A stretch of 64,000 nt of DNA from Naegleria gruberi. Lineage: Eukaryota. The position numbers and the translations under genes are program-made. Numbering within the stretch: the stretch's first letter is position 1; every line of letters begins with the position of its first letter. Location: the NCBI GenBank assembly GCA_000004985.1, contig GG738860.1, one strand, 5' to 3'. The notes beneath the pieces are model-generated. The model was not told the DNA's origin and did not search any database. It worked only from the letters and a program-made list of their open reading frames with translations. Positions 17,285 through 57,627 of this stretch are shown here, in pieces.

Positions 17285-17338
17285 TTTTTAGATTGAAAAA
17301 TTGTAAACAATTATAACATAATAATAATGTGAAACAAT

Positions 17339-23100: not shown

Positions 23101-23617
23101 ATTTAAATTCAACTTTTTAGATGTCGATTTTCAGAACAATTTGAAAGTTCAATAAACTTGTGAATAATTAATGCTTCAAAGCTTATAAAAAGTTTAACCA
23201 CAATTATTAATAGATTTTAAATTAATTGAATACATAGAGAGATCAACATTCATCATTCCATAGCAATCACACTGCAATCCAACAACCAAAGGTATCAGCA
23301 AAAGGCAACTTATGGGTTAGGGTATTCGATTGCTGTGAAGTGGGTACACTAGCTCAGTTGTCTTTTTTTCTATTTCCCAATCAATGAGTGCTTTTGGAGT
23401 ATGTTGATACATTTATTATTTACAAACTTTTTTGTTACAAATTTCAATCGAAATGCCTGAGAAATTTTTTAAAATGAAAGTGCCCAATCATTGATTATTT
23501 TCTCTATGGTTTTAAGAAATGAAACTTTGAAAATTGAATCTTAGCTAGATTACATATAATTTATCATATAATGATAAAATTAAATGTCAAATATAGGAGA
23601 TGGAGTCAAAAATTAAT

Positions 23618-23688
23618 CTCGAGTGCCGGGAATTGAACCCGGGTCGCCAGAGTGACAGTCTGGAATGCTACCACTATACCACACCCGA
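23618..23688 (-). tRNA. tRNA-Asp (anticodon GUC), copy 1
   Basis: Minus strand: TCGGGTG TG GTAT AGTGGTA GCAT T CCAGA CTGTCAC TCTGG CGAC CCGGG TTCAATT CCCGG CACTCGA G. It has a 7-bp acceptor stem (one G-U), a perfect anticodon stem, U33, GTC anticodon, A37, and a T-arm with TTCAATT loop. One D-stem mismatch. A T5 run follows the 3' end. Confidence 0.8.
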
Positions 23689-24251
23689 TTTCACATGTTG
23701 TATCACCAGTAACAGTATTTGTAGTTGTTCAAACGGATTACCATAAAAGGAACCTTAGTGTTTCTTTTTAATATAATTATACTTACATATATGTATACCT
23801 ACTGAGAATGGATCCATACAATCGATTACTCCAACGAACTAAATTTTGAATCTGCTAATTGTCAACAAATGATATTGTTAAACAAAATACAAACACTATG
23901 AAATGCACAACTTCATTCTAAACATTGTATTAGAAAAATTGGAAATAGGAAAGAATCGGTAAAATTGTCTCATAGTGATTCTCTCTTGTTTATGGCCATA
24001 AATACTTTTTTGGACAGTTTCGTATGAAATTGGGTTTTGTAATATTTATTTTCTATGACATGTCATGCATAATTTCTTGTACTTGCCATCTCAATGGCAC
24101 ACAAGGGTCACAACAAATTTTTTCTTCAAGAGGCACCACCTCCTTCTTGCTTGTTATTTCCAAATTTAAACTATGCGTGCTGTCAATAAACTGAAAAGCA
24201 AATGTCAAATGTTTTCTCTTCATCGCTTAAAAAAACAAACACACAATAACA

Positions 24252-28789: not shown

Positions 28790-28870
28790 CGTTGAGGATG
28801 GGATTCGAACCCACGCGGATTACTCCACCAACTTAGCAGGCTGGCGCCTTAACCACTCGGCCACCTCAAC
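28790..28870 (-). tRNA. tRNA-Ser (anticodon GCU), class II with long variable arm
   Basis: Minus strand: GTTGAGG TG GCCGAGTGGTTAAGGC G CCAGC CTGCTAA GTTGG TGGAGTAATCCGCG TGGGTTCGAATCCCATCCTCAAC G. It has a 7-bp acceptor stem, GCT anticodon with U33 and A37, and a T-arm identical to eukaryotic tRNA-Ser. It is followed by TTTT. Confidence 0.85.
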
Positions 28871-31835: not shown

Positions 31836-33029
31836 ATGAATTATCTCCTTCAGGGATTTTCAGAAAAATCTTCATCTACTAACCAATCAATAATGAAAAA
31901 CAAGTCAAGAAAGGGGTGGAGCAATGCACTGTTCCTCCTTAACTACTTTATCATCATGATGATAATTTTACAAATATCAACCAATTACTACTGTTTGGCC
32001 ATTCCGAATGACAAGAACAAAACCCCTACATGTAAGAATGGAAGGCTTATTACAAATACCACTACTCCTCAACAATTTGCCTCAACCAAATGTTCATGTT
32101 TTAAGGGATATTCGGGAAGTGATTGTAACATACCAGTTTGTTTTGGATTGAAGGCAAGTTCAAAATCTGTATGTGGTGGCAAAGGTAACTCCAAATGTAT
32201 TGCTCCAGATACATGCATTAAAATCAATGAAGCAACAATCATGAAGCGATTTCAATCCAATGCTAAAGAGGACAGTTCATGTTCCAATCGTGGTCAAATG
32301 AGTAATGGTCAATGCATATGTAGTGAGGGATTCTATGGAGAATCTTGCGAATATTCTAATTGTTATGATACAGCTAGCCAGCTCACTTGTAGTGGAAGAG
32401 GAGAATGCTCCTCTGATAATATTTGCACTTGTAGAGAGAATGATATGTTTGGCGATAGATGTCAATACACACTCCCAGATAAGATTTATCAAAATGATGT
32501 TTGTGGGTCATGTATCATTGTGGCTGGTGTCAGTGGAGATGCTATTCCATCGAAGTATTCACTCTTGAACAATCCTACTGGACTATTTGTGGATGAAACA
32601 ACTGGTTTCATCTTTTTCGCAGATCAAGGCAATGCAAAGGCAAGAGTTCTCACAAGGGATGATACTATCTATTCGATTGCCTCTGTTTCCACACCAACTA
32701 GTATAGCATTCGATAAGAAAACAAGAGATGTCTATATTGGTACTAGAAATGGACTATTCAAATTGAACAGCAAGAGAGAACTCTCTAAATTGAACAGCTT
32801 GTATTGTAGCAGTGTCATTGTTAATGGTCAGGGACATGTTGTGTTTACACAGGGACCATATAACAAGATTTCAAAACTTGTAAATGGTGTGCAAGTTGAG
32901 GTGGCAGGGGATAATGACGGCGAAGGAAAATATGATGGTGACAACAAAGTGGCAACGGATGCAAGTGTCAACAATCCAGCTTATTTGAGCTACCATGCTG
33001 ACTCTGATACAATTTACTTTATGGACAGA
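31836..33029 (+). CDS. N-terminal fragment of a receptor-like protein: signal peptide, tenascin-type EGF-like Cys repeats, start of an NHL-repeat beta-propeller; truncated by assembly gap. Probably the 5' part of the receptor kinase resuming at 43232
   Basis: Begins MNYLLQGF..., with a hydrophobic signal or anchor (WSNALFLLNYFIIMMIILQISTNYYCLA). EGF-like modules follow (CSCFKGYSGSDCNIPVCFG..., CICSEGFYGESCEYSNCYD...CTCRENDMFGDRCQ). NHL-like blades come next (LLNNPTGLFVDETTGFIFFADQGNAKARVL...NNPAYLSYHADSDTIYFMDR). The frame is then cut by the 50-N gap at 33030. Confidence 0.6.
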
Positions 33030-33079
33030 NNNNNNNNNNNNNNNNNNNNNNNNNNNNNNNNNNNNNNNNNNNNNNNNNN
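33030..33079. other. Assembly gap (50 N)
   Basis: A run of exactly 50 N separates the receptor gene fragment from the second 5S/tRNA unit. Confidence 1.
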
Positions 33080-33087
33080 AACTGAAT

Positions 33088-33206
33088 GGCTACGGCCATA
33101 TCACGATGAATGCACCTCATCCCGTCCGATTTGAGAAGTTAAGCATCGTCGAGCCACATCAGTACTGAGGTTGGAGACAACTTGGGAACCTGTGGTGCTG
33201 TAGTCT
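33088..33206 (+). rRNA. 5S ribosomal RNA gene (copy 2)
   Basis: Identical to 22982..23100 (offset 10106 bp). Confidence 0.85.
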
Positions 33207-33723
33207 ATTTAAATTCAACTTTTTAGATGTCGATTTTCAGAACAATTTGAAAGTTCAATAAACTTGTGAATAATTAATGCTTCAAAGCTTATAAAAAGTT
33301 TAACCACAATTATTAATAGATTTTAAATTAATTGAATACATAGAGAGATCAACATTCATCATTCCATAGCAATCACACTGCAATCCAACAACCAAAGGTA
33401 TCAGCAAAAGGCAACTTATGGGTTAGGGTATTCGATTGCTGTGAAGTGGGTACACTAGCTCAGTTGTCTTTTTTTCTATTTCCCAATCAATGAGTGCTTT
33501 TGGAGTATGTTGATACATTTATTATTTACAAACTTTTTTGTTACAAATTTCAATCGAAATGCCTGAGAAATTTTTTAAAATGAAAGTGCCCAATCATTGA
33601 TTATTTTCTCTATGGTTTTAAGAAATGAAACTTTGAAAATTGAATCTTAGCTAGATTACATATAATTTATCATATAATGATAAAATTAAATGTCAAATAT
33701 AGGAGATGGAGTCAAAAATTAAT

Positions 33724-33794
33724 CTCGAGTGCCGGGAATTGAACCCGGGTCGCCAGAGTGACAGTCTGGAATGCTACCACTATACCACACCCGA
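33724..33794 (-). tRNA. tRNA-Asp (anticodon GUC), copy 2
   Basis: Identical to 23618..23688. Confidence 0.8.
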
Positions 33795-34261
33795 TTTCAC
33801 ATGTTGTATCACCAGTAACAGTATTTGTAGTTGTTCAAACGGATTACCATAAAAGGAACCTTAGTGTTTCTTTTTAATATAATTATACTTACATATATGT
33901 ATACCTACTGAGAATGGATCCATACAATCGATTACTCCAACGAACTAAATTTTGAATCTGCTAATTGTCAACAAATGATATTGTTAAACAAAATACAAAC
34001 ACTATGAAATGCACAACTTCATTCTAAACATTGTATTAGAAAAATTGGAAATAGGAAAGAATCGGTAAAATTGTCTCATAGTGATTCTCTCTTGTTTATG
34101 GCCATAAATACTTTTTTGGACAGTTTCGTATGAAATTGGGTTTTGTAATATTTATTTTCTATGACATGTCATGCATAATTTCTTGTACTTGCCATCTCAA
34201 TGGCACACAAGGGTCACAACAAATTTTTTCTTCAAGAGGCACCANCTCCTTCTTGCTTGTT

Positions 34262-37200
34262 NNNNNNNNNNNNNNNNNNNNNNNNNNNNNNNNNNNNNNN
34301 NNNNNNNNNNNNNNNNNNNNNNNNNNNNNNNNNNNNNNNNNNNNNNNNNNNNNNNNNNNNNNNNNNNNNNNNNNNNNNNNNNNNNNNNNNNNNNNNNNNN
34401 NNNNNNNNNNNNNNNNNNNNNNNNNNNNNNNNNNNNNNNNNNNNNNNNNNNNNNNNNNNNNNNNNNNNNNNNNNNNNNNNNNNNNNNNNNNNNNNNNNNN
34501 NNNNNNNNNNNNNNNNNNNNNNNNNNNNNNNNNNNNNNNNNNNNNNNNNNNNNNNNNNNNNNNNNNNNNNNNNNNNNNNNNNNNNNNNNNNNNNNNNNNN
34601 NNNNNNNNNNNNNNNNNNNNNNNNNNNNNNNNNNNNNNNNNNNNNNNNNNNNNNNNNNNNNNNNNNNNNNNNNNNNNNNNNNNNNNNNNNNNNNNNNNNN
34701 NNNNNNNNNNNNNNNNNNNNNNNNNNNNNNNNNNNNNNNNNNNNNNNNNNNNNNNNNNNNNNNNNNNNNNNNNNNNNNNNNNNNNNNNNNNNNNNNNNNN
34801 NNNNNNNNNNNNNNNNNNNNNNNNNNNNNNNNNNNNNNNNNNNNNNNNNNNNNNNNNNNNNNNNNNNNNNNNNNNNNNNNNNNNNNNNNNNNNNNNNNNN
34901 NNNNNNNNNNNNNNNNNNNNNNNNNNNNNNNNNNNNNNNNNNNNNNNNNNNNNNNNNNNNNNNNNNNNNNNNNNNNNNNNNNNNNNNNNNNNNNNNNNNN
35001 NNNNNNNNNNNNNNNNNNNNNNNNNNNNNNNNNNNNNNNNNNNNNNNNNNNNNNNNNNNNNNNNNNNNNNNNNNNNNNNNNNNNNNNNNNNNNNNNNNNN
35101 NNNNNNNNNNNNNNNNNNNNNNNNNNNNNNNNNNNNNNNNNNNNNNNNNNNNNNNNNNNNNNNNNNNNNNNNNNNNNNNNNNNNNNNNNNNNNNNNNNNN
35201 NNNNNNNNNNNNNNNNNNNNNNNNNNNNNNNNNNNNNNNNNNNNNNNNNNNNNNNNNNNNNNNNNNNNNNNNNNNNNNNNNNNNNNNNNNNNNNNNNNNN
35301 NNNNNNNNNNNNNNNNNNNNNNNNNNNNNNNNNNNNNNNNNNNNNNNNNNNNNNNNNNNNNNNNNNNNNNNNNNNNNNNNNNNNNNNNNNNNNNNNNNNN
35401 NNNNNNNNNNNNNNNNNNNNNNNNNNNNNNNNNNNNNNNNNNNNNNNNNNNNNNNNNNNNNNNNNNNNNNNNNNNNNNNNNNNNNNNNNNNNNNNNNNNN
35501 NNNNNNNNNNNNNNNNNNNNNNNNNNNNNNNNNNNNNNNNNNNNNNNNNNNNNNNNNNNNNNNNNNNNNNNNNNNNNNNNNNNNNNNNNNNNNNNNNNNN
35601 NNNNNNNNNNNNNNNNNNNNNNNNNNNNNNNNNNNNNNNNNNNNNNNNNNNNNNNNNNNNNNNNNNNNNNNNNNNNNNNNNNNNNNNNNNNNNNNNNNNN
35701 NNNNNNNNNNNNNNNNNNNNNNNNNNNNNNNNNNNNNNNNNNNNNNNNNNNNNNNNNNNNNNNNNNNNNNNNNNNNNNNNNNNNNNNNNNNNNNNNNNNN
35801 NNNNNNNNNNNNNNNNNNNNNNNNNNNNNNNNNNNNNNNNNNNNNNNNNNNNNNNNNNNNNNNNNNNNNNNNNNNNNNNNNNNNNNNNNNNNNNNNNNNN
35901 NNNNNNNNNNNNNNNNNNNNNNNNNNNNNNNNNNNNNNNNNNNNNNNNNNNNNNNNNNNNNNNNNNNNNNNNNNNNNNNNNNNNNNNNNNNNNNNNNNNN
36001 NNNNNNNNNNNNNNNNNNNNNNNNNNNNNNNNNNNNNNNNNNNNNNNNNNNNNNNNNNNNNNNNNNNNNNNNNNNNNNNNNNNNNNNNNNNNNNNNNNNN
36101 NNNNNNNNNNNNNNNNNNNNNNNNNNNNNNNNNNNNNNNNNNNNNNNNNNNNNNNNNNNNNNNNNNNNNNNNNNNNNNNNNNNNNNNNNNNNNNNNNNNN
36201 NNNNNNNNNNNNNNNNNNNNNNNNNNNNNNNNNNNNNNNNNNNNNNNNNNNNNNNNNNNNNNNNNNNNNNNNNNNNNNNNNNNNNNNNNNNNNNNNNNNN
36301 NNNNNNNNNNNNNNNNNNNNNNNNNNNNNNNNNNNNNNNNNNNNNNNNNNNNNNNNNNNNNNNNNNNNNNNNNNNNNNNNNNNNNNNNNNNNNNNNNNNN
36401 NNNNNNNNNNNNNNNNNNNNNNNNNNNNNNNNNNNNNNNNNNNNNNNNNNNNNNNNNNNNNNNNNNNNNNNNNNNNNNNNNNNNNNNNNNNNNNNNNNNN
36501 NNNNNNNNNNNNNNNNNNNNNNNNNNNNNNNNNNNNNNNNNNNNNNNNNNNNNNNNNNNNNNNNNNNNNNNNNNNNNNNNNNNNNNNNNNNNNNNNNNNN
36601 NNNNNNNNNNNNNNNNNNNNNNNNNNNNNNNNNNNNNNNNNNNNNNNNNNNNNNNNNNNNNNNNNNNNNNNNNNNNNNNNNNNNNNNNNNNNNNNNNNNN
36701 NNNNNNNNNNNNNNNNNNNNNNNNNNNNNNNNNNNNNNNNNNNNNNNNNNNNNNNNNNNNNNNNNNNNNNNNNNNNNNNNNNNNNNNNNNNNNNNNNNNN
36801 NNNNNNNNNNNNNNNNNNNNNNNNNNNNNNNNNNNNNNNNNNNNNNNNNNNNNNNNNNNNNNNNNNNNNNNNNNNNNNNNNNNNNNNNNNNNNNNNNNNN
36901 NNNNNNNNNNNNNNNNNNNNNNNNNNNNNNNNNNNNNNNNNNNNNNNNNNNNNNNNNNNNNNNNNNNNNNNNNNNNNNNNNNNNNNNNNNNNNNNNNNNN
37001 NNNNNNNNNNNNNNNNNNNNNNNNNNNNNNNNNNNNNNNNNNNNNNNNNNNNNNNNNNNNNNNNNNNNNNNNNNNNNNNNNNNNNNNNNNNNNNNNNNNN
37101 NNNNNNNNNNNNNNNNNNNNNNNNNNNNNNNNNNNNNNNNNNNNNNNNNNNNNNNNNNNNNNNNNNNNNNNNNNNNNNNNNNNNNNNNNNNNNNNNNNNN

Positions 37201-40200
37201 NNNNNNNNNNNNNNNNNNNNNNNNNNNNNNNNNNNNNNNNNNNNNNNNNNNNNNNNNNNNNNNNNNNNNNNNNNNNNNNNNNNNNNNNNNNNNNNNNNNN
37301 NNNNNNNNNNNNNNNNNNNNNNNNNNNNNNNNNNNNNNNNNNNNNNNNNNNNNNNNNNNNNNNNNNNNNNNNNNNNNNNNNNNNNNNNNNNNNNNNNNNN
37401 NNNNNNNNNNNNNNNNNNNNNNNNNNNNNNNNNNNNNNNNNNNNNNNNNNNNNNNNNNNNNNNNNNNNNNNNNNNNNNNNNNNNNNNNNNNNNNNNNNNN
37501 NNNNNNNNNNNNNNNNNNNNNNNNNNNNNNNNNNNNNNNNNNNNNNNNNNNNNNNNNNNNNNNNNNNNNNNNNNNNNNNNNNNNNNNNNNNNNNNNNNNN
37601 NNNNNNNNNNNNNNNNNNNNNNNNNNNNNNNNNNNNNNNNNNNNNNNNNNNNNNNNNNNNNNNNNNNNNNNNNNNNNNNNNNNNNNNNNNNNNNNNNNNN
37701 NNNNNNNNNNNNNNNNNNNNNNNNNNNNNNNNNNNNNNNNNNNNNNNNNNNNNNNNNNNNNNNNNNNNNNNNNNNNNNNNNNNNNNNNNNNNNNNNNNNN
37801 NNNNNNNNNNNNNNNNNNNNNNNNNNNNNNNNNNNNNNNNNNNNNNNNNNNNNNNNNNNNNNNNNNNNNNNNNNNNNNNNNNNNNNNNNNNNNNNNNNNN
37901 NNNNNNNNNNNNNNNNNNNNNNNNNNNNNNNNNNNNNNNNNNNNNNNNNNNNNNNNNNNNNNNNNNNNNNNNNNNNNNNNNNNNNNNNNNNNNNNNNNNN
38001 NNNNNNNNNNNNNNNNNNNNNNNNNNNNNNNNNNNNNNNNNNNNNNNNNNNNNNNNNNNNNNNNNNNNNNNNNNNNNNNNNNNNNNNNNNNNNNNNNNNN
38101 NNNNNNNNNNNNNNNNNNNNNNNNNNNNNNNNNNNNNNNNNNNNNNNNNNNNNNNNNNNNNNNNNNNNNNNNNNNNNNNNNNNNNNNNNNNNNNNNNNNN
38201 NNNNNNNNNNNNNNNNNNNNNNNNNNNNNNNNNNNNNNNNNNNNNNNNNNNNNNNNNNNNNNNNNNNNNNNNNNNNNNNNNNNNNNNNNNNNNNNNNNNN
38301 NNNNNNNNNNNNNNNNNNNNNNNNNNNNNNNNNNNNNNNNNNNNNNNNNNNNNNNNNNNNNNNNNNNNNNNNNNNNNNNNNNNNNNNNNNNNNNNNNNNN
38401 NNNNNNNNNNNNNNNNNNNNNNNNNNNNNNNNNNNNNNNNNNNNNNNNNNNNNNNNNNNNNNNNNNNNNNNNNNNNNNNNNNNNNNNNNNNNNNNNNNNN
38501 NNNNNNNNNNNNNNNNNNNNNNNNNNNNNNNNNNNNNNNNNNNNNNNNNNNNNNNNNNNNNNNNNNNNNNNNNNNNNNNNNNNNNNNNNNNNNNNNNNNN
38601 NNNNNNNNNNNNNNNNNNNNNNNNNNNNNNNNNNNNNNNNNNNNNNNNNNNNNNNNNNNNNNNNNNNNNNNNNNNNNNNNNNNNNNNNNNNNNNNNNNNN
38701 NNNNNNNNNNNNNNNNNNNNNNNNNNNNNNNNNNNNNNNNNNNNNNNNNNNNNNNNNNNNNNNNNNNNNNNNNNNNNNNNNNNNNNNNNNNNNNNNNNNN
38801 NNNNNNNNNNNNNNNNNNNNNNNNNNNNNNNNNNNNNNNNNNNNNNNNNNNNNNNNNNNNNNNNNNNNNNNNNNNNNNNNNNNNNNNNNNNNNNNNNNNN
38901 NNNNNNNNNNNNNNNNNNNNNNNNNNNNNNNNNNNNNNNNNNNNNNNNNNNNNNNNNNNNNNNNNNNNNNNNNNNNNNNNNNNNNNNNNNNNNNNNNNNN
39001 NNNNNNNNNNNNNNNNNNNNNNNNNNNNNNNNNNNNNNNNNNNNNNNNNNNNNNNNNNNNNNNNNNNNNNNNNNNNNNNNNNNNNNNNNNNNNNNNNNNN
39101 NNNNNNNNNNNNNNNNNNNNNNNNNNNNNNNNNNNNNNNNNNNNNNNNNNNNNNNNNNNNNNNNNNNNNNNNNNNNNNNNNNNNNNNNNNNNNNNNNNNN
39201 NNNNNNNNNNNNNNNNNNNNNNNNNNNNNNNNNNNNNNNNNNNNNNNNNNNNNNNNNNNNNNNNNNNNNNNNNNNNNNNNNNNNNNNNNNNNNNNNNNNN
39301 NNNNNNNNNNNNNNNNNNNNNNNNNNNNNNNNNNNNNNNNNNNNNNNNNNNNNNNNNNNNNNNNNNNNNNNNNNNNNNNNNNNNNNNNNNNNNNNNNNNN
39401 NNNNNNNNNNNNNNNNNNNNNNNNNNNNNNNNNNNNNNNNNNNNNNNNNNNNNNNNNNNNNNNNNNNNNNNNNNNNNNNNNNNNNNNNNNNNNNNNNNNN
39501 NNNNNNNNNNNNNNNNNNNNNNNNNNNNNNNNNNNNNNNNNNNNNNNNNNNNNNNNNNNNNNNNNNNNNNNNNNNNNNNNNNNNNNNNNNNNNNNNNNNN
39601 NNNNNNNNNNNNNNNNNNNNNNNNNNNNNNNNNNNNNNNNNNNNNNNNNNNNNNNNNNNNNNNNNNNNNNNNNNNNNNNNNNNNNNNNNNNNNNNNNNNN
39701 NNNNNNNNNNNNNNNNNNNNNNNNNNNNNNNNNNNNNNNNNNNNNNNNNNNNNNNNNNNNNNNNNNNNNNNNNNNNNNNNNNNNNNNNNNNNNNNNNNNN
39801 NNNNNNNNNNNNNNNNNNNNNNNNNNNNNNNNNNNNNNNNNNNNNNNNNNNNNNNNNNNNNNNNNNNNNNNNNNNNNNNNNNNNNNNNNNNNNNNNNNNN
39901 NNNNNNNNNNNNNNNNNNNNNNNNNNNNNNNNNNNNNNNNNNNNNNNNNNNNNNNNNNNNNNNNNNNNNNNNNNNNNNNNNNNNNNNNNNNNNNNNNNNN
40001 NNNNNNNNNNNNNNNNNNNNNNNNNNNNNNNNNNNNNNNNNNNNNNNNNNNNNNNNNNNNNNNNNNNNNNNNNNNNNNNNNNNNNNNNNNNNNNNNNNNN
40101 NNNNNNNNNNNNNNNNNNNNNNNNNNNNNNNNNNNNNNNNNNNNNNNNNNNNNNNNNNNNNNNNNNNNNNNNNNNNNNNNNNNNNNNNNNNNNNNNNNNN

Positions 40201-43200
40201 NNNNNNNNNNNNNNNNNNNNNNNNNNNNNNNNNNNNNNNNNNNNNNNNNNNNNNNNNNNNNNNNNNNNNNNNNNNNNNNNNNNNNNNNNNNNNNNNNNNN
40301 NNNNNNNNNNNNNNNNNNNNNNNNNNNNNNNNNNNNNNNNNNNNNNNNNNNNNNNNNNNNNNNNNNNNNNNNNNNNNNNNNNNNNNNNNNNNNNNNNNNN
40401 NNNNNNNNNNNNNNNNNNNNNNNNNNNNNNNNNNNNNNNNNNNNNNNNNNNNNNNNNNNNNNNNNNNNNNNNNNNNNNNNNNNNNNNNNNNNNNNNNNNN
40501 NNNNNNNNNNNNNNNNNNNNNNNNNNNNNNNNNNNNNNNNNNNNNNNNNNNNNNNNNNNNNNNNNNNNNNNNNNNNNNNNNNNNNNNNNNNNNNNNNNNN
40601 NNNNNNNNNNNNNNNNNNNNNNNNNNNNNNNNNNNNNNNNNNNNNNNNNNNNNNNNNNNNNNNNNNNNNNNNNNNNNNNNNNNNNNNNNNNNNNNNNNNN
40701 NNNNNNNNNNNNNNNNNNNNNNNNNNNNNNNNNNNNNNNNNNNNNNNNNNNNNNNNNNNNNNNNNNNNNNNNNNNNNNNNNNNNNNNNNNNNNNNNNNNN
40801 NNNNNNNNNNNNNNNNNNNNNNNNNNNNNNNNNNNNNNNNNNNNNNNNNNNNNNNNNNNNNNNNNNNNNNNNNNNNNNNNNNNNNNNNNNNNNNNNNNNN
40901 NNNNNNNNNNNNNNNNNNNNNNNNNNNNNNNNNNNNNNNNNNNNNNNNNNNNNNNNNNNNNNNNNNNNNNNNNNNNNNNNNNNNNNNNNNNNNNNNNNNN
41001 NNNNNNNNNNNNNNNNNNNNNNNNNNNNNNNNNNNNNNNNNNNNNNNNNNNNNNNNNNNNNNNNNNNNNNNNNNNNNNNNNNNNNNNNNNNNNNNNNNNN
41101 NNNNNNNNNNNNNNNNNNNNNNNNNNNNNNNNNNNNNNNNNNNNNNNNNNNNNNNNNNNNNNNNNNNNNNNNNNNNNNNNNNNNNNNNNNNNNNNNNNNN
41201 NNNNNNNNNNNNNNNNNNNNNNNNNNNNNNNNNNNNNNNNNNNNNNNNNNNNNNNNNNNNNNNNNNNNNNNNNNNNNNNNNNNNNNNNNNNNNNNNNNNN
41301 NNNNNNNNNNNNNNNNNNNNNNNNNNNNNNNNNNNNNNNNNNNNNNNNNNNNNNNNNNNNNNNNNNNNNNNNNNNNNNNNNNNNNNNNNNNNNNNNNNNN
41401 NNNNNNNNNNNNNNNNNNNNNNNNNNNNNNNNNNNNNNNNNNNNNNNNNNNNNNNNNNNNNNNNNNNNNNNNNNNNNNNNNNNNNNNNNNNNNNNNNNNN
41501 NNNNNNNNNNNNNNNNNNNNNNNNNNNNNNNNNNNNNNNNNNNNNNNNNNNNNNNNNNNNNNNNNNNNNNNNNNNNNNNNNNNNNNNNNNNNNNNNNNNN
41601 NNNNNNNNNNNNNNNNNNNNNNNNNNNNNNNNNNNNNNNNNNNNNNNNNNNNNNNNNNNNNNNNNNNNNNNNNNNNNNNNNNNNNNNNNNNNNNNNNNNN
41701 NNNNNNNNNNNNNNNNNNNNNNNNNNNNNNNNNNNNNNNNNNNNNNNNNNNNNNNNNNNNNNNNNNNNNNNNNNNNNNNNNNNNNNNNNNNNNNNNNNNN
41801 NNNNNNNNNNNNNNNNNNNNNNNNNNNNNNNNNNNNNNNNNNNNNNNNNNNNNNNNNNNNNNNNNNNNNNNNNNNNNNNNNNNNNNNNNNNNNNNNNNNN
41901 NNNNNNNNNNNNNNNNNNNNNNNNNNNNNNNNNNNNNNNNNNNNNNNNNNNNNNNNNNNNNNNNNNNNNNNNNNNNNNNNNNNNNNNNNNNNNNNNNNNN
42001 NNNNNNNNNNNNNNNNNNNNNNNNNNNNNNNNNNNNNNNNNNNNNNNNNNNNNNNNNNNNNNNNNNNNNNNNNNNNNNNNNNNNNNNNNNNNNNNNNNNN
42101 NNNNNNNNNNNNNNNNNNNNNNNNNNNNNNNNNNNNNNNNNNNNNNNNNNNNNNNNNNNNNNNNNNNNNNNNNNNNNNNNNNNNNNNNNNNNNNNNNNNN
42201 NNNNNNNNNNNNNNNNNNNNNNNNNNNNNNNNNNNNNNNNNNNNNNNNNNNNNNNNNNNNNNNNNNNNNNNNNNNNNNNNNNNNNNNNNNNNNNNNNNNN
42301 NNNNNNNNNNNNNNNNNNNNNNNNNNNNNNNNNNNNNNNNNNNNNNNNNNNNNNNNNNNNNNNNNNNNNNNNNNNNNNNNNNNNNNNNNNNNNNNNNNNN
42401 NNNNNNNNNNNNNNNNNNNNNNNNNNNNNNNNNNNNNNNNNNNNNNNNNNNNNNNNNNNNNNNNNNNNNNNNNNNNNNNNNNNNNNNNNNNNNNNNNNNN
42501 NNNNNNNNNNNNNNNNNNNNNNNNNNNNNNNNNNNNNNNNNNNNNNNNNNNNNNNNNNNNNNNNNNNNNNNNNNNNNNNNNNNNNNNNNNNNNNNNNNNN
42601 NNNNNNNNNNNNNNNNNNNNNNNNNNNNNNNNNNNNNNNNNNNNNNNNNNNNNNNNNNNNNNNNNNNNNNNNNNNNNNNNNNNNNNNNNNNNNNNNNNNN
42701 NNNNNNNNNNNNNNNNNNNNNNNNNNNNNNNNNNNNNNNNNNNNNNNNNNNNNNNNNNNNNNNNNNNNNNNNNNNNNNNNNNNNNNNNNNNNNNNNNNNN
42801 NNNNNNNNNNNNNNNNNNNNNNNNNNNNNNNNNNNNNNNNNNNNNNNNNNNNNNNNNNNNNNNNNNNNNNNNNNNNNNNNNNNNNNNNNNNNNNNNNNNN
42901 NNNNNNNNNNNNNNNNNNNNNNNNNNNNNNNNNNNNNNNNNNNNNNNNNNNNNNNNNNNNNNNNNNNNNNNNNNNNNNNNNNNNNNNNNNNNNNNNNNNN
43001 NNNNNNNNNNNNNNNNNNNNNNNNNNNNNNNNNNNNNNNNNNNNNNNNNNNNNNNNNNNNNNNNNNNNNNNNNNNNNNNNNNNNNNNNNNNNNNNNNNNN
43101 NNNNNNNNNNNNNNNNNNNNNNNNNNNNNNNNNNNNNNNNNNNNNNNNNNNNNNNNNNNNNNNNNNNNNNNNNNNNNNNNNNNNNNNNNNNNNNNNNNNN

Positions 43201-43231
43201 NNNNNNNNNNNNNNNNNNNNNNNNNNNNNNN
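34262..43231. other. Assembly gap (8970 N)
   Basis: Continuous N run. All giant ORFs reported across it (34130..43276, 34159..43266, 34171..43431, 34197..43394, 34200..45386, 34232..43288) are poly-X artefacts. Confidence 1.
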
Positions 43232-46200
43232 TACTGGAACAATTGCCAAAGTCTTTTCTGCTCCATACGGTGTTAAAAGCTTCCACAAACTTGAGAATGG
43301 TAATTTTATTTTCGCAGAGAAAAATTATCCTAGAATTGCCCTTTTCAAGACCAATAGCAGCAAGATTATCTACTTGGCTGGTCAATACGAACAAGGTTAC
43401 GATCCAATCGTTATTTCTGACAATGTGTTAGCAACCACAACAAGTGTGAATCATCCTCGATCACTCTATGTAAAGAATGGAGAGCTCTATTTTGCAGATA
43501 CCTACAACTCTCTCGTGAGAAAAATCACCCTCTCAACAGGAGTTCTCTCAACCATTGCTGGTAATGGAGGTGAGCGTTTTTATGGGGATGGTGGATTGGG
43601 AACGAGTGCTTCTTTGAACTATCCATATGGAATTCACTTACATACTGATGGTTCTATCTACATTGCCGATACTTACAATAGTAAGATTAGAAAGTTAGAC
43701 TCTTCCAAAAAGATTAGCTCAGTTGCTGGAAATGGATATTTGGGATATTCGGACAATACTCAACCATTGAGAGCTTCATTCAATTTGGCAGTAAGCGTTC
43801 TCATTAACAACGTAGGGGACATGTACATTTCAGATTATGCAAACAATGTAATTAGAAAGATGAGCTCCTCTGGTGCCATTACAACTATTGCTGGACAAGC
43901 AAAGATTTCTGGTTTTGCTGATAGTTTAAATGCAAAGACTGCTCTATTGAATGGTCCATTTGGATTATATTATCAGGAATCCACACAAACTCTCTTTTTT
44001 GCTGACAGTCTCAATGGTAGAATAAGAAAGCTAACAAAGAATGGAGCAATTGAAACAGTTCTTGCTTCAATTAACGATCCAAGAGAAATCTCATTCCACA
44101 CAACCCATGGTCACATGTACTTTACTTCTGGAGGTGACCAAACCATTAAGGTTCTATTCTCCAATGGTACTCTTTCTGTGCTCAACATTCCAAAAGATTA
44201 CTACATTGGTCTCCATGTTGATTCCACTAATGATTATCTCTATGCAAGTGGTTATACATACATTTATAGATTTTCCATTGCAGGAGGTAGTAGCATTGAT
44301 CACAATCAAACCGATCCAATCATCGATAACATTTCTAAGAATTGTACTAAGGGATGTGAAAAGGGTGAATGTGTGAATGGAACTTGCGTCTGTAAGGAAA
44401 ATTATGGAGGTGAAATTTGTGATAGGCCAATGTGTTTTGGAAAATTGAGCAATGAGAGTGGTGTGTGTAATACTCACGGAGTTTGTCTGCAACCAAACGT
44501 TTGCTACTGTTACGGAAATTGGGAGGCCGAAGAATGCACCCAATGTAAGAGTGGATTTACTGGTTCTAATTGCAGAACCTGTGCCGATGGTTTTGTTGGA
44601 GAATTGTGTAATATCCCTATTTGTTTCAACGTATTTGCTAATGAATCAAACGTTTGTTCTGGACATGGTTCTTGCAAATCTCCAAACAATTGTTCATGCT
44701 TTGGAAATTGGGAGGGAGAAAGTTGTCAATCTTGTAAGGAGGGATACACTGGCTCAGAATGTGACACTCCAGTTTGTTTCGGGTTCAGNNNNNNNNNNNN
44801 NNNNNNNNNNNNNNNNNNNNNNNNNNNNNNNNNNNNNNNNNNNNNNNNNNNNNNNNNNNNNNNNNNNNNNNNNNNNNNNNNNNNNNNNNNNNNNNNNNNN
44901 NNNNNNNNNNNNNNNNNNNNNNNNNNNNNNNNNNNNNNNNNNNNNNNNNNNNNNNNNNNNTGGGTTGGAGATTGTGTGATTCCTGTCAAGCTGGATACAG
45001 TGGTTCAAATTGTGATATTCCTGTTTGTTTTGGATCAAGCGTTGAAGGAGATGGTTCTTTGGTTTGCTCAGGGCACGGTAACTGTTCAGGACCAGATATG
45101 TGCACTTGTAACGAAAACTGGTCTGGAAATGATTGTTCCACTTGTAGAGAAGGTTATTATGGAGAAGACTGCTCCTCATGTACACCTGGATTCAGTGGTG
45201 AGAGATGTGACATTCCTTCATGCTTTGGTATTTCAGCAAATGCTAGTAATGTATGTTCTGGAAATGGTTATTGTTTCAGTCCAGATTTGTGCTCCTGCTT
45301 TGAGAATTGGAAGGGTGAAAGTTGTAATCAATGCAGTAGCGATTACATTGGTGAATTGTGTGATATTCCGTCCTGTTTTGGAGTGAATGGTAATGATAGA
45401 TCAGTTTGTTCTGGTCATGGCTCTTGTATTACCCCATCCAATTGTTCTTGTTTCAATAACTGGGAAGGAGCAATGTGTGAAAATTGTCCAACAGGTTTCT
45501 CTGGAGATGACTGCAAATCCTGTGACGAAAGTCACACTGGAGAGGGATGTGATGTTCCAATCTGTTACGGCCTTGCAGCTAATAATGAAAGTGTTTGCTC
45601 TGGAAATGGCAAGTGCATTGAGTCCTCTGTATGTGTTTGTTCTGGTTTTTGGACTGGAGCTAATTGTGATACTTGTCCAGAAAAGTATTCAGGATCGGCT
45701 TGTGATGTGCCAGTTTGTTATGGAGTAAGCGCTAACGATTCTATGGTTTGCTCTGGACATGGTTCTTGTGTTGCACCTTCTCAATGTTTTTGTGAAGGAA
45801 GATGGGCTGGAGAATTGTGTGATTCCTGCGTGGCTGGATATAATGGTTCAAATTGTGAAAATCCAATCTGCTTTGGAGAATTCAACACCTCTATTGTTTG
45901 TTCTGGTCATGGTTTGTGCTCAGCACTAGATGTTTGTGTGTGTAGCGAGCAATGGGCTGGAGAAACTTGTGGCAAATGTAATTCTGGATATTACGGAATA
46001 ACTTGTGAGCTTTCTTGTGATCCACAAATAGTGAAACCATCTCTCACAATCAAGCAAGGTTCAATAATTTCCTATGTGATTGGAACTTCTATTGCTTTGG
46101 AACCAGAATTGACAATTCCATTGTGCTATGCCGGTCATTTCAGCTCCATTAGCTATGGATATGCTTCTGATTTCTTTAACCAATCTCAACTGGTTCAGGT

Positions 46201-47305
46201 TGATAAATTCCTTGTCATTGGCGAATCAACCAAGAGCTCTGGAACTTTAATTTCTAACGAAGGTGAATATTCATTCAAGGTTATTGCTACACTTGGCAGG
46301 TTGGAAATTTCCACTTCCTTTGAATTTATTGTCAAGTCCAATTTGGCTTCGCTCACTCTTGATTTCAACATTCCAAATATGCTCACTCAATCCTTTGAAA
46401 AACCTTTGGAATTTGAAGTTAAAGCCTCTGATCCAAGCTTCCCTAGTGATTTAACTGAGGGTGATTTATCACTCAATTGTTGGAATCAAGATAATCAATT
46501 GGTAGAAAAGTTGGTTGACACTGTTTTCAATCATACTATTACAGTCTCAAAACAACTCAATCCAGGGCAATATGTTTGTGAAGCAACATTCAAGAAGGAT
46601 TCCAGAGTTATTACCAAGTCAATTCAGGTTGTCCTTGTTGATGTCTCTTCATCAAATGTACTCACTGTTACTCTTAAATTGGAAGGTCAAAATCCAACTT
46701 GGGTAAATCCAACAAAAGATTTGACCATATCAGCTGATATCAAAGAATCTATTGGTCCAAATGTTGTGTATGATTGGAAATCTCCATTCCAACCAATGGA
46801 TACAACTGTCTCGAATCAATTAGTTATTCCATCCAGTCAATTAGCTCTTGGAAAGAGGTATAACATTTCTCTGATTGTTACAGATGGAAGTAAGAAGGGA
46901 TTTGGATTTATTTCCTTCAAGACCTATAGTCCTCCTTCAATGGGATCATTCTCTGTTTCTCCTCTCTTTGGTTACTCTCTCACAACCAATTTCATGCTAT
47001 CTGGTGGTGTTGATTGGATTTCTTTCAATCAAGATGTCTTGACATTTACATTCATTTATAGAAGTGTAGGTTCTTTGGCATGGAAATCATTGGCTGAAAG
47101 TTCTGTTCAAACATCTCTCAATACTACTCTCCCTTCAGGAACATGGGAAACTTCAGTTTCAGTTTCCGATTCATTCTTATCATACACAATCTATGATAAA
47201 CCAGTCATAGTCCAGGTGAATACTACAGATTTAACTGTTGCTCAATTGAATTATGTTGCCTCTAATCCAATTACTCCATCAGTCATTTCTTCATTGATTA
47301 GTTAT
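43232..47305 (+). CDS. Ectodomain of a receptor-like kinase: NHL-repeat beta-propeller, array of ~13 tenascin-type EGF-like modules (interrupted by a 172-N gap), REJ/PKD-like beta-rich region; 5' end lies in the gap
   Basis: The open frame starts right after the gap. NHL blades: SLYVKNGELYFADTYNSLVRKI, GIHLHTDGSIYIADTYNSKIRKL, GDMYISDYANNVIRKM, GLYYQESTQTLFFADSLNGRIRKL. A periodic ~60-aa Cys module follows: CDxPxCFG...N.S.VCSG.G.C..P..C.C...W.G..C..C..G..G..C. The frame continues after the N-run (44789..44960) through a Cys-poor beta-rich region with many N-glycosylation sites, up to 47305. Confidence 0.65.
44789..44960. other. Assembly gap (172 N) inside the EGF-repeat array
   Basis: N run within tandem near-identical EGF-module coding repeats, a likely assembly break in a repeat. 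Confidence 1.
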
Positions 47306-47328
47306 GTGAGCAGTGGTTCTTCTTCCAA

Positions 47329-49434
47329 GTGAAAGAACAATCAAAACAAATTGTCATGGATAGTATCAAGACATCTTTGACAAAGGAGACTCTTGACACT
47401 ACATTGACAGTTTCTTCATTGAAATCTGCCATTTCAGTTATTGATTCGGTGAGCTCAGTTGTTAATGTCTTTAGGGATAGTGAAAGTACTGTTGTTTTGG
47501 AATACTTTTCGACAGTATTACACAAGACAATATCCAATGGAATTCAAATGTCTTCTGATGATATTCAGCTATGTTTGAACTCTGCTACAAAATTTGAAGA
47601 ATTCTTCTTTGGATCAAAGAGACGAACTTCTCGTGCAGTATCTGATTCACTTGAAAAGATCACTCAGATTTATAATATTCTCACAGAAGTTCAGTTCAGA
47701 AAACTAAAGGAAGGCGAAGGCCCTTCAAGAATTTCAAGTTTATCATACTACTCGTATTGCAAATTTATGAAATCTGATTCGATTGCTCCATATTCTGATA
47801 CCATCACTCAAACTTCTCTTCAATTCTCCTTGTTGCAAGCCCTTAATACTTCAAGAGATACTTTGGGCGTTCCAGAGAATTCAATGGTATGCCTCAAGAT
47901 GTATTATGTTCAATCTTGGAGAAGTGTCATGCCAAGCTCTTATACTGTTGAGTTATCATTCTTGGATATTAAGCGTGATTATGCCTCTGTTTCAATTTCT
48001 AGTAGCCACAATATTGCAAAATTGACCATTCCAAGAATGAATACTGGAGTTGATAAGAAACAAACATGTTACCTTGTTGATACAATGAAAAAGGAAGAAT
48101 GCTCAATTTCCTCTACTAGTCCTCTTCAAATAGTTATTCAAACCACCAAGACTGGAAAATTCTTTGTTGGTTACTATGAAGATGCTGCAACGCCAATTGT
48201 TAATCCTTCCAATGGTGACGTTTCCCTCAGTGCTTTTATTGTCATATTTGCCATCATTCTTCCAATATTAGTTTGTGGTTGTATTTGTGCAGCACTTGCT
48301 ATTGTTTGTGGTTGTGCCTGTAAGAAATGGAAAGCTAGAGCAGCATTGAACAGCCATTCAATTCTCCGAAGTACTCAATCATTACCACTTCCAAATGAAC
48401 GATTGGATGTAACATTTGATGATATCAATGTCTATAATACTGGAATTAATAGTAGTCCTTTATTGCCACTCTATATTCAACCAAGTGAACTTAAACTCTT
48501 GTCGAAACTGGGAAGTGGTGGATATGGAAGTGTTCATAAGGCCTATTGGAAAGATCAACTTGTTGCTGTCAAGTCTACTCCAGTTCCAGATAACTCCAAG
48601 CAAATTGAAATTCCAAGAGAAGCTGCACTCATGTATTCATTGAAACATCCAAATATTGTTGAATGTTACGGTATTTCTATTAAGGGAAAGGAACAATTAA
48701 TTGTTATGGAATATGTTAATGGAAATTTGAATCAATTGATTGGGGATTTGTGTAGAAAATCTATCAAGATGGATTTGGATGAAAAGATTGAAATTTTACT
48801 TCAAATTGCCACTGGTATGAATTACTTGCATCAATTGAATCCTTCCATTGTTCACAGAGATTTGACTCCTGCTAATGTGTTATTTGATCCAAGAACAAAA
48901 GCTTGTAAGATTTGTGATTTTGGTCTCAGTAAGCCGCTCAACTTGGAAAATACTGAAACCAAGAATAGGAGTACCATATATTTCGTTCCTAACGAGCTTA
49001 TTTGTTGTACAGATCCAAATTTAACCAATAATCCACGTGCCATTGATGTTTACAGTTTCTCCATTCTTGCTTGGCAAGTAATCTTTGAAGACCATCCTTA
49101 TCTGTATATCAATAAGGAAAAACTCTTCTCCAACTCTAAATTCAAACACACTCCATATGTTGATGTGACCAATGACAACTTATTGGCAAGAGTTGCTACT
49201 GGATTGAGACCTGTCATTCCATTCAATGCTGATACAGTTTCTAAATGGACTCAAAAATTCATCAAATCCAAGTATGATAATGATTTGATAGCACTCTCAA
49301 TGATTGCCATAGCTCAACTCGTTCAAAATTGTTGGAACTTGAATCCTCATTTGAGACCCAACTTCCAAGATGTTAGTGATACATTACAAACATGCAAAAA
49401 TACTCTCTCCAGTAACCATCCTCTCTTAGTTTAA
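47329..49434 (+). CDS. Membrane-proximal ectodomain, transmembrane helix and TKL-type protein kinase domain; almost certainly the 3' continuation of the receptor gene at 43232..47305, joined across a 1-nt frame discontinuity near 47300..47330
   Basis: The reading frame has no ATG and opens at 47302 (the ORF track assumed a GTG start). It contains ~300 aa of extracellular sequence, a TM helix (AFIVIFAIILPILVCGCICAALAIVCGCAC followed by KKWK), and a kinase domain: LGSGGYGSVHKAYWKDQLVAVKS, HRDLTPANVLF, DFGLSKP, the activation segment, and ILAWQV...HPY. The stop is at 49432..49434. Confidence 0.7.
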   Translation: MKEQSKQIVMDSIKTSLTKETLDTTLTVSSLKSAISVIDSVSSVVNVFRDSESTVVLEYFSTVLHKTISNGIQMSSDDIQLCLNSATKFEEFFFGSKRRTSRAVSDSLEKITQIYNILTEVQFRKLKEGEGPSRISSLSYYSYCKFMKSDSIAPYSDTITQTSLQFSLLQALNTSRDTLGVPENSMVCLKMYYVQSWRSVMPSSYTVELSFLDIKRDYASVSISSSHNIAKLTIPRMNTGVDKKQTCYLVDTMKKEECSISSTSPLQIVIQTTKTGKFFVGYYEDAATPIVNPSNGDVSLSAFIVIFAIILPILVCGCICAALAIVCGCACKKWKARAALNSHSILRSTQSLPLPNERLDVTFDDINVYNTGINSSPLLPLYIQPSELKLLSKLGSGGYGSVHKAYWKDQLVAVKSTPVPDNSKQIEIPREAALMYSLKHPNIVECYGISIKGKEQLIVMEYVNGNLNQLIGDLCRKSIKMDLDEKIEILLQIATGMNYLHQLNPSIVHRDLTPANVLFDPRTKACKICDFGLSKPLNLENTETKNRSTIYFVPNELICCTDPNLTNNPRAIDVYSFSILAWQVIFEDHPYLYINKEKLFSNSKFKHTPYVDVTNDNLLARVATGLRPVIPFNADTVSKWTQKFIKSKYDNDLIALSMIAIAQLVQNCWNLNPHLRPNFQDVSDTLQTCKNTLSSNHPLLV

Positions 49435-49486: not shown

Positions 49487-49560
49487 TGCCTCCCTTGGGA
49501 ATCGAACCCAAGACCTCTGTCTTACTAGGACAGCGCTACTGCCAACTGAGCTAGGAAGGC
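49487..49560 (-). tRNA. tRNA-Thr (anticodon AGU)
   Basis: Minus strand: GCCTTCC TA GCTC AGTTGGCAGT AGC G CTGTC CTAGTAA GACAG AGGTC TTGGG TTCGATT CCCAA GGGAGGC A. It has a perfect 5-bp anticodon stem, U33, AGT anticodon, A37, a canonical T-arm, and a 7-bp acceptor stem (one G-U). A TTTT run follows. Confidence 0.8.
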
Positions 49561-49632: not shown

Positions 49633-51190
49633 TTAAAGATTCAATGAGTCTCTTATTGCTTTGTTTTGCTCTTTTAAAACTTCAAGAGATCCATCCATTG
49701 ACAAGAGCTCTTCATCTACATCCTTTGTCTTTTCAATATCCTTCTTTACCATTTTGTGCATGTCACTAGCAAACATTTTGGATAATCCTGCAACAATACC
49801 CTTTGGAACAGAACCTTTCATATCCATGAAATCAAAAATGTAATATCTGGTCGAGTTTGTTGTTTGTCTCTCAATAACAACAGCTGTGTAGAGCGACACT
49901 CGAATAAAATCCTTCTTGATTGGTGAGTCATCGTGAGCTGAAGGCTTTGAAATAATTACAAATCTATCAAATTCATCCGTTTCCTCATTATATTTATCAG
50001 GTATGATGGTTCTAGCCATGACAATTTCTCTCTTAGTGAATGGGAACCCAATCTATTAGTTTTAAGTTTTACAAATAGTATTATACATAGTAAACTTAAT
50101 CACCCAACCAAATTGAATTTTGAAAACTTACATCCAACTGATGGTAAATAATAGTATTAGGATATTCAATTCCCTTTTCATGATTAATCTTTAAATATTC
50201 CAATTGGAATTTTCTCTTATAGAATGAGTTAATCTTCTTTTCAAATGATTTCTTAAAAAATAGATTGAAAATACTCTTGTGATCTCCACTCATCAATCCA
50301 GTAAAACAAATCACTGGTAGGGCTTCTTCACCTAAATTCATATAATAATTATTAACACTGGTAAGTGTTTTGGTTCCAGTCTTTTCATCTGCCACTTTCC
50401 ACCTGTTGCTATCGTTCAATGTTGATATTAATTCTTTCAAAATTTCATAATCCTTTGGAGTGACATAGATTGAGGTATTATCAATTAGGGGTCTATCTTT
50501 ATCCTTGATGGGTGTACTCTTTGCTATTTCCTCTATAAAGCTATCACTATCACTCGAATCCTGTGAAATGCTACTGTCTGATCTATCCAATGCTTTTTTG
50601 GTCCCTAATTGTTCAAGTAATTGTGACGGAGAGTCCTTGTATTCTGGCTTTTTAGCTTCCTTCTTTAAAAAGGATTTAAATTGTTCAGATTCGGTAAATC
50701 TTGGAAAATTATCTTGTTTCAATTCGGAAAAGATGACGTTCTGAGCTTTTTGGAACAAGTCCGATGGACATTCTATTAATTCAACTGCTTTTCCTTCATT
50801 AAATTCTTGAGTTAAACTCCAAATCTTTAGAATATCTTTCCTAATGGTCATTGACAAGTTTAATTCATGTTTGGCACTCACAACAATAAAAGTATTCATA
50901 ATTTCCACAGCCATATCAAATCTATTCTTGTCCAATCTTGTTTTTTGATACTTTTCAACCATTTCATAAAACATGAAAGGATCTTCATTCAAATTATCCT
51001 TTAAAAACTTTCGGAAACAATCACGAGCACTTTCATGATCAAAAACTGCTTCAATATTGAATTTATATCGTTGAATGAGAGAATCGTCCAAACCAACTGT
51101 TGGTTTCTGCGGTTGGCCTGACAGGTTATTCAACATTTTTTTCTTATTAGTTTCGGATGAGATAACTATTGTCTTCCAACACAATACCAC
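49633..51190 (-). CDS. RGS-domain protein with C-terminal START-like domain, 2 exons (paralog B, inverted relative to 20838..22362)
   Basis: Exon 1 is 51190..50132 (ends ...YHQLD at a GTAAGT donor). The intron 50131..50053 has a TAG acceptor. Exon 2 is 50052..49633 (IGFPFTKREIVMARTIIPDKY...). The RGS core YKFNIEAVFDHESARDCFRKFLKDNLNEDPFMFYEMVEKYQKTRLDKNRFDMAVEIMNTFIVVSAKHELNLSMTIR is identical in protein to paralog A. Exon-2 START-like sequence: YYIFDFMDMKGSVPKGIVAGLSKMFASDMHKMVKK. Confidence 0.65.
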
Positions 51191-51378
51191 ATAGCTCTAA
51201 GATATTTATTACTCCATACTATTTTGATTGTGTTCGTTCTTCTATTAATATAACCATTGAAGGTTTGTATATCCGAGGCCCTAGCAGCAAGTCCTCTCCG
51301 TTGTCCGATTCCAACCAAGGCTTTCATTCACTGATCATCATCATTAAACATTAAATAATAATTAATAATAAATTATAA

Positions 51379-54312: not shown

Positions 54313-54383
54313 GGGGGCGAGGGGGAATCGAACCCCCGGCCACAGCTTTGGAGGCTGCGATGTTACCATTACACCACCGCCCC
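54313..54383 (-). tRNA. tRNA-Trp (anticodon CCA)
   Basis: Minus strand: GGGGCGG TG GTGT AATGGTA ACAT C GCAGC CTCCAAA GCTGT GGCC GGGGG TTCGATT CCCCC TCGCCCC C. It has U33, CCA anticodon, A37, a perfect T-stem and a 7-bp acceptor stem. A TTTT run lies downstream. Confidence 0.8.
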
Positions 54384-57522: not shown

Positions 57523-57627
57523 GTAAGTGCTTTACAATTTCTTTTTACAATTCATGTTTGATTGACTTCAAACTTCCACCAATAATAAGAAAAAATTTTA
57601 ATGTGGAGGACTACGTGCTAAATTGTT

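Follow-up and report, generated by a model that had tools for sequence, protein, structure and literature searches.

The window analysed here, a 64,000-nucleotide stretch of Naegleria gruberi DNA (contig GG738860.1 of assembly GCA_000004985.1, 34% GC), carries on its plus strand, between positions 31836 and 49434, a locus that quite probably represents a single gene encoding a type I single-pass receptor-like kinase of ~2,450-2,550 residues. Four long open pieces make up this locus: segments A (31836-33029), B (43233-44786), C (44963-47329) and D (47329-49431, with the stop codon at 49432-49434). Open reading frame (ORF) calls and translation place them where an earlier reading of the bare letters, hereafter the sequence-only reading, had drawn them. 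N runs are found in the window at 33030-33079 (50 N), 34245 (a single N), 34262-43231 (8970 N) and 44789-44960 (172 N). When 1.84 billion representative proteins were searched exhaustively with HMMER, segment D was found to be 100% identical to a 2331-residue protein (P0004), which is N. gruberi NAEGRDRAFT_66049 (XP_002678784.1; UniProt D2VB11, D2VB11_NAEGR) and bears no other name than 'predicted protein'. A one-gene model is thus already public, though unstudied. The same match corrects the setting among Amoebozoa that had been suggested previously, since N. gruberi belongs to the Heterolobosea, and an amoebozoan (dictyostelid) origin is ruled out by this best database match. From its N-terminus, the protein would consist of a signal-like leader, ~4 EGF-like modules, 11-12 NHL blades, at least 10 teneurin/tenascin-type EGF modules and a REJ module, followed by a 295-residue stalk predicted to be helical and then sheet-forming, one transmembrane (TM) helix, a short juxtamembrane segment and a TKL-like kinase. 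Pfam finds NHL, EGF_Teneurin, REJ and Pkinase above their curated cut-offs, in keeping with the domains that had been recognized by eye.

The start codon and a signal-peptide-like leader (ALFLLNYFIIMMIILQI, then CLA/IP) occupy 31836-32003 on the plus strand, as judged from the ORF, its translation and a hydropathy window above 2.0 at residue 31, with an alternative start (Met20) at 31893. This signal-like h-region at the N-terminus of segment A is consistent with the signal peptide that had been postulated, and cleavage is predicted at CLA/IP. The ~4 N-terminal EGF-like modules that follow (32031-32468; Pfam and motif scan) include one of teneurin type (CNIPVCFG), and segment A matches EGF_Teneurin with 30.8 bits and EGF_2 with 27.3 bits, both above cut-off. 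Next come NHL blades a1-a4 (32508-33029; blade hidden Markov model (HMM) and BLASTP), the contig stopping in the middle of a blade, and the blades resume on the far side of the gap as b1-b7 (43233-44282; Pfam, blade HMM, PDB matches and an AlphaFold2 (AF2) model), again starting mid-blade. Segment B matches TEN_NHL (PF25021) with 46.9 bits (cut-off 27.1) and NHL (PF01436) with 31.6 bits (cut-off 20). Eleven blades are therefore visible (a1-a4 and b1-b7) and there are probably 12 in all, forming two six-bladed propellers as in P0011, a protein of Naegleria lovaniensis that is discussed below.

When the NHL region was compared with the PDB by sequence, the best match was the Bacillus inaquosorum teneurin-like protein 9IFO (9e-48, six stretches), with further matches to SOQ1, NHLRC2, teneurin-2 (4e-13) and the PknD sensor (1e-9). 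An AF2 model built from two paralogous rows (pLDDT 69.7, pTM 0.71) has four-stranded blades, and Foldseek likewise returns 9IFO first (4e-18), then virginiamycin B lyase, NHLRC2, SOQ1, Pizza6 and teneurin-2 (4e-12); modelling of the NHL region leads to NHL propellers (E 4e-18 to 1e-11). Judged from these sequence and model comparisons, the NHL assignment is sound, yet generic rather than teneurin-specific.

The propellers are followed by a long EGF array in two parts. The first (44343-44788; EGF_Teneurin 36.8 bits, motif scan) ends inside a module (CDTPVCFGF), and the second (44963-46066) contains six modules, located by motif positions, that account for an EGF_Teneurin (PF23106) score of 97.9 bits in 6 stretches of segment C and an EGF_2 score of 60.4 bits. 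The signature CDxPxC[FY]G...CSGxGxC..P..CxC...WxGxxC occurs ten times with a module period of 51 or 63-65 residues, and one or two short CxxCxxxxxGxxC half-modules come after it. The previous count of ~13 tenascin-type modules agrees roughly with this, as 10 modules have CDxPxCF[GN] (one in A, three in B and six in C) and the remainder would be other EGF-like modules. Collapse of tandem EGF and NHL repeats during assembly, which had been put forward as the cause of the gaps, is unsupported. The NHL blades of A and B are only 27-35% identical as proteins (BLASTP) and have no similarity as DNA, the EGF units are 69-81% identical over no more than 143 nt, and Tandem Repeats Finder detects no array; repeat collapse was rejected on these grounds.

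Downstream of the EGF modules lies a beta-rich region of ~420 residues with NxS/T sequons (46073-47329), close in size and character to the ~400-residue REJ-like region of the sequence-only reading, in which Pfam places a REJ domain (PF02010) at 46532-47224, with 63.7-65.8 bits (cut-off 25) over profile positions 161-417 of 452. This is the unexpected element of the ectodomain, REJ being a module of polycystin-1 and PKDREJ and not a teneurin domain. Between it and the membrane is an extracellular juxtamembrane stalk of 295 residues (47332-48216), with a predicted secondary structure of about six helices and then beta strands with a Cys pair, which ends in a hydrophobic strand (...CYLVDTMKKEECSISSTSPLQIVIQTTKTGKFFVGYY) 18 residues before the TM helix. 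After the REJ module of polycystin-1 comes a GAIN domain of ~320 residues that adjoins the first TM helix (PMC4810088), and the stalk is on its predicted secondary structure a candidate GAIN-like domain. It has no Pfam match even at E <= 10 and no PDB match by sequence, and the REJ region, as a PDB sequence query of its own, likewise returned nothing meaningful. In Foldseek, an AF2 model of the stalk (pLDDT 46) finds the GAIN domain of BAI3 at rank 2, with a probability of 0.89 but an E-value of 0.04 and a TM score of 0.26, a weak match. That these 295 residues form a true GAIN-type domain is hence possible but doubtful. The His-Leu-Thr cleavage triad is absent from the stalk, the equivalent place reading TTK-TGKFFVGYY, so that autoproteolysis is not predicted, even if the fold is GAIN-like.

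The hydropathy profile contains one TM helix (48226-48321, values up to 3.04), as had been proposed, and the KKWKAR that comes after it indicates by the positive-inside rule that the kinase is cytoplasmic and the protein type I. The kinase itself (48490-49383) was delimited by Pfam, motifs and an alignment with 11 paralogs, and reads GSGGYGSV, VAVK, HRDLTPAN, DFG, VPNE and CWNLNPHLRPNF. Segment D matches Pkinase with 151.6 bits and PK_Tyr_Ser-Thr with 146.5 bits, contains HRDLTPANVLF and DFGLSKP as had been noticed by eye, and has the core motifs of the fold (G-loop, VAVK, alpha-C Glu, HRD, Asn, DFG and a CW..P..RP.F of TK/TKL type). Its nearest relatives among solved kinases are CTR1 (8e-31), MLK1, EGFR, RIPK4 and MLK4, with TNNI3K and ZAK also among the best and EGFR and ABL interleaved; on this sequence evidence the TKL label fits. 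The catalytic-loop Lys is replaced by Thr (HRDLTPAN), where 11 of the 11 aligned paralogs have HRDLKP[AG]N, and a single wrong base does not explain this, since two changes separate the Thr codon, ACT, from a Lys codon.

Whether A and B belong together depends on the nominal 10.2 kb gap between them (33030-43231), which by its N runs and by self-comparison of the window consists of 50 N, a contig (33080-34261) and 8970 N. The sequence-only reading had not drawn the gaps in this way and left the contig unmentioned. At face value, a contig of 1,182 bp without a coding frame and with a tRNA-Asp gene at 33724-33794 would be an intergenic region, and there would hence be two adjoining paralogous genes here: a secreted EGF-NHL protein ending in the gap, and then an NHL-EGF-REJ-TM-kinase receptor with its 5' end and leader in the gap, which the public model and the sequence-only reading would both have fused wrongly. 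The nominal width of the gap suits such an arrangement, as does the fact that Naegleria NHL/EGF genes with and without kinases adjoin each other at an N. lovaniensis locus (L001). However, the contig is an exact copy of 22974-24155, which lies 10.1 kb further upstream, the sole difference being the N at 34245, and it was rejected as a real intergenic region for that reason. Between 24155, where the true copy ends, and 33029, where A ends, there are 8874 bp, only 96 bp less than the run of 8970 N. Mate pairs would have positioned a redundant copy of 22974-24155 upstream of B at a distance of 8,970 bp, the real spacing if B comes ~100 bp after A. The blades point the same way. According to an HMM built from 16 blades, A breaks off at position ~30 of 58 (...DTIYFMDR; the last match covers model positions 1-29 and residues 368-397 of 398) and B opens at position ~42 (TGTIAKVFS), so that their ends are complementary halves of one blade from which 11 residues, or 11 + ~57n, are missing. 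Moreover, A has no 3' end of its own and B neither a 5' end nor a leader. Because of the redundant contig, the match between 8970 and 8874, the blade phase and the 12 blades of P0011, A and B are regarded as parts of one gene, and the presence of two genes is improbable. A scaffolding artefact is the most likely source of the 10.2 kb gap, which would hide just ~33-200 bp of NHL coding sequence between an almost contiguous A and B. The single receptor spanning A-D in the sequence-only reading thus stands on firmer ground than before. The public model treats the stretch from ~32964 to ~43319 like a 10.35 kb intron and loses 22 codons of A and 29 of B, which are plainly NHL coding sequence. As a side effect of the probable redundancy of contig 33080-34261, one of the two tRNA-Asp genes in the window is likely not real.

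The two remaining joins are of different kinds. At the 172-N gap inside the EGF array (44789-44960), module phase could be followed in the translations: B ends in the head of an EGF module (CDTPVCFGF) and C starts with a tail (GWRLC..C..GYSGSNC), so that the array continues through the gap, which must hide at least ~27 residues. The public model spans this gap as well. The third 'gap', seen previously between 47305 and 47329, contains no N at all and is instead a change of reading frame (47302-47363; three-frame translation and reconstruction of the public model), the frame of C stopping at a TGA (47330-47332) and that of D being open from 47302. A leader in segment D itself, which by the terms of the sequence-only reading would have told against a single receptor, is absent, and D begins with 295 residues of extracellular type before the TM helix; it must therefore continue C. 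As reconstructed, the public model keeps the frame by excising 47329-47363 as a 35-nt intron (GTGAAA...AG). The intron of the Naegleria paralogue in L001 reads GTAAGT...AG and lies within a 121-nt interval between coding blocks, and the 35-nt intron, unlike it, was rejected as implausible. The break at 47.33 kb is more likely either a 1-nt sequencing or assembly error or a real, very recent frameshift. If it is real, the ectodomain would be uncoupled from the TM helix and kinase in a recently inactivated gene, or one encoding a pseudokinase. This would agree with a TGA that has no N nearby and is avoided in the public model only by an intron unlike that of the paralogue, with a catalytic-loop Lys that is conserved in all the aligned paralogs and lost here by two base changes, and with the absence of the E-x-x-x-E-x-K-L-L motif that these paralogs have in their juxtamembrane segment. 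Such a decayed gene seems unlikely, although less so than two fused ones, as the four ORF pieces (1.2, 1.55, 2.4 and 2.1 kb) are otherwise intact despite 34% GC and frequent stops, all the other catalytic motifs are in place, and the break is accounted for just as well by one wrong base in a draft assembly. The record of this gene can thus be corrected in two respects: the public 2331-residue model bridges a spurious 10 kb gap and drops coding sequence at the joins, and its 35-nt intron hides a frame break.

A third possibility is that the protein is a true relative of teneurins, for example a bacterial teneurin-like toxin acquired by gene transfer, whose NHL/EGF ectodomain became fused to a kinase to give a new class of receptor. 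Like teneurins and the bacterial teneurin-like proteins (6FB3, 9IFO; PMC13018210), it combines tenascin/teneurin-type EGF repeats with an extracellular NHL beta-propeller, its Pfam labels include EGF_Teneurin (97.9, 36.8 and 30.8 bits in C, B and A, respectively), EGF_TEN and TEN_NHL, and 9IFO is its best PDB match both by sequence and by fold, with teneurin-2 further down. Teneurins, however, are type II proteins defined by a superfold of FN-plug, NHL and YD-shell with a C-terminal toxin-like domain (PMC13018210), and little of this is seen here. Their topology (N-terminal intracellular domain, TM helix, ectodomain) is the opposite of that of the Naegleria protein, in which the leader is N-terminal and the TM helix precedes the kinase. 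No RHS/YD or FN-plug family was found by Pfam at E <= 0.1 in the four segments, a YD shell of ~1,500 residues would probably not fit into the gaps that remain, and TTR, ABD and Tox-GHH have no match in the segments, the C-terminus being kinase up to the stop codon. The domain order (EGF-NHL-EGF-REJ) also differs from that of teneurins, which lack both the REJ module and the kinase. As for the NHL region, NHLRC2, SOQ1, virginiamycin B lyase and Pizza, which is derived from PknD, score in the same range, the TEN_NHL match spans only positions 130-194 of a 357-position profile, and the pairing of EGF with NHL is also found in other Naegleria proteins. The teneurin framing of the sequence-only reading hence falls on its type I topology, on the missing YD/RHS and FN-plug, on the presence of REJ and on a generic NHL match. 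Descent from a teneurin is very improbable, more so than either of the two possibilities above, and the gene has no bearing on teneurin origins.

Some observations nevertheless weigh against one gene for a working receptor kinase, as favoured here. The case for an artefact in the large gap is built on arithmetic and blade phase rather than on reads. If the frameshift is real, it could mean, together with the Lys-to-Thr change, that the gene is decaying. Look-ups of exact sequences (P0004, two versions of the D ORF, a lipase neighbour and P0042) returned no record, and no orthologue of the REJ-stalk part was found in any search, so that conservation of the full architecture is unsupported. Last, the ligand and the signalling output are pure conjecture.

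The best full-length relatives of the gene are proteins of 1,060-1,290 residues from N. lovaniensis, N. fowleri and N. gruberi that, among the top full-length matches, share the TM helix and kinase with it at 35-43% identity. Examples are P0011, P0021, P0024, P0032, P0036, P0041 and P0042, among others, and their ectodomains are diverse: 12 NHL blades and one EGF in P0011, EGF_TEN arrays in P0024 and P0157, Chlam_PMP repeats in P0036, P0041 and P0042, and no known domain in P0021, P0032, P0044 and P0055. The closest in design is P0011 (N. lovaniensis C9374_001816, XP_044551476.1, 1239 residues), which also has a signal peptide, NHL blades, an EGF module of the CxPxCFG...CSGNGVC type, one TM helix and a C-terminal TKL-like kinase, with 39% identity over TM helix and kinase, APE replaced by ANE/PNE and an FEExPY-like motif (FEDHPY here). 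It differs in that it lacks the N-terminal EGFs, the REJ module and the 295-residue stalk and contains a single EGF, and it keeps HRDLKPAN and a juxtamembrane segment with acidic residues and K-L-L (...ESELEQKLLD), both absent in this gene. Sequence comparison thus shows a lineage-specific family of receptor kinases with a common TM-kinase part, built by ectodomain shuffling. The present gene is the most elaborate and most divergent member seen here and the only one with REJ and a 295-residue stalk, neither of which occurs in any of the 150 best kinase relatives. What had been presented as a candidate novel receptor class is therefore a variant of receptor-like kinase rather than a new class, since its TM-kinase part belongs to a Naegleria-wide family with interchangeable ectodomains and its model was already public. 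Naegleria has thus assembled its receptor-like kinases by exchanging ectodomains over a shared TM-kinase part, a route also taken independently by plants, Dictyostelium and choanoflagellates. No description of such a receptor-kinase family was found in the literature on Naegleria with NHL, REJ or receptor kinase. At locus L001 of N. lovaniensis (PYSW02000013.1), a 650-residue protein with TEN_NHL and EGF_TEN and without a kinase is encoded at 15619-17571, 1.7 kb downstream of P0011; this pair of neighbours indicates that Naegleria NHL/EGF cassettes occur both with and without kinases.

Of the whole gene, only the combination of a REJ module and a possible GAIN stalk with a kinase merits further attention. 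A metagenome scan with a REJ + stalk query gave no relative, and word-indexed protein searches with REJ-to-kinase, REJ + stalk and stalk + TM queries gave plant receptor-like kinases or nothing; these last searches missed even the self match and thus say nothing on the absence of relatives. Should the stalk prove to be a GAIN domain, Naegleria, a discoban far from animals, would couple a REJ + GAIN module to a single-pass kinase and not to a multi-pass receptor, a new output for the module of polycystin-1 and adhesion GPCRs. The pairing of REJ and GAIN would then predate opisthokonts or have been transferred, which would widen the known uses and age of the module. As regards function, the propellers and the EGF array might attach to a ligand or surface outside the cell, REJ and the stalk could act as a rigid or force-bearing spacer, and ligand-driven clustering would unite kinase domains for trans-phosphorylation. 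With Thr in place of Lys in the catalytic loop, this copy may have weak kinase activity, or may serve its paralogs as a scaffold or co-receptor.

The locus is flanked by two inverted paralogs with an RGS domain, at 20823-22359 (plus strand) and 49633-51196 (minus strand), which are 74% identical as DNA over ~1.29 kb and each of which seems split into a long and a short ORF. Adjoining it upstream on the plus strand (24231-28607) is an uninterrupted ORF of 1,459 codons, for which Pfam gives no match at E <= 0.001 and whose N-terminus is hydrophobic; it encodes a large orphan membrane or secreted protein. Five tRNA genes, all on the minus strand and all within short intergenic spacers, lie at 23618-23688 (Asp), 28790-28870 (Ser), 33724-33794 (Asp), 49487-49560 (Thr) and 54313-54383 (Trp), the tRNA-Thr gene beginning 53 bp after the receptor stop codon. 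Further away are a minus-strand ORF at 4228-6309, whose weak dCache_1 match and nucleotide cyclase catalytic domain make it look like a receptor-type cyclase, a second and unrelated kinase gene at 10870-13284 (plus strand, 805 codons, Pkinase 155.9 bits, kinase at the C-terminus), and a leucine-rich-repeat gene at 56419-57531 (minus strand) built of DNA units of ~72 bp that are 80-87% identical (self-BLAST offsets of 72, 144 and 216 bp).

Apart from the teneurins, three known systems share parts of this architecture. Polycystin-1, PKDREJ and sea urchin REJ (PMC4810088) resemble it in having a REJ module, then ~300-330 residues and then the membrane, with the position and size expected of a GAIN domain. 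They have 11 TM helices, PLAT and channel-like parts, whereas the Naegleria protein has a single TM helix and a kinase, no PLAT match and no GPS/GAIN match by sequence. PknD of Mycobacterium tuberculosis (1RWI), whose blades match those found here at 1e-9, combines an extracellular six-bladed NHL propeller with one TM helix and a Hanks-type Ser/Thr kinase, and may be taken by analogy as a bacterial precedent for a transmembrane kinase that senses through an NHL propeller. Its domain order is the reverse, however, with the kinase N-terminal and the propeller C-terminal, and this bacterial protein has one propeller and neither EGF nor REJ. The TKL receptor kinases of protists and plants, among them the GDT and DRK families of Dictyostelium (PMC1420674), likewise consist of a signal peptide, an ectodomain, one TM helix and a C-terminal TKL kinase, but the ectodomains of those in Dictyostelium are of the gdt, drk or TIG kinds, none being described with NHL, EGF or REJ.

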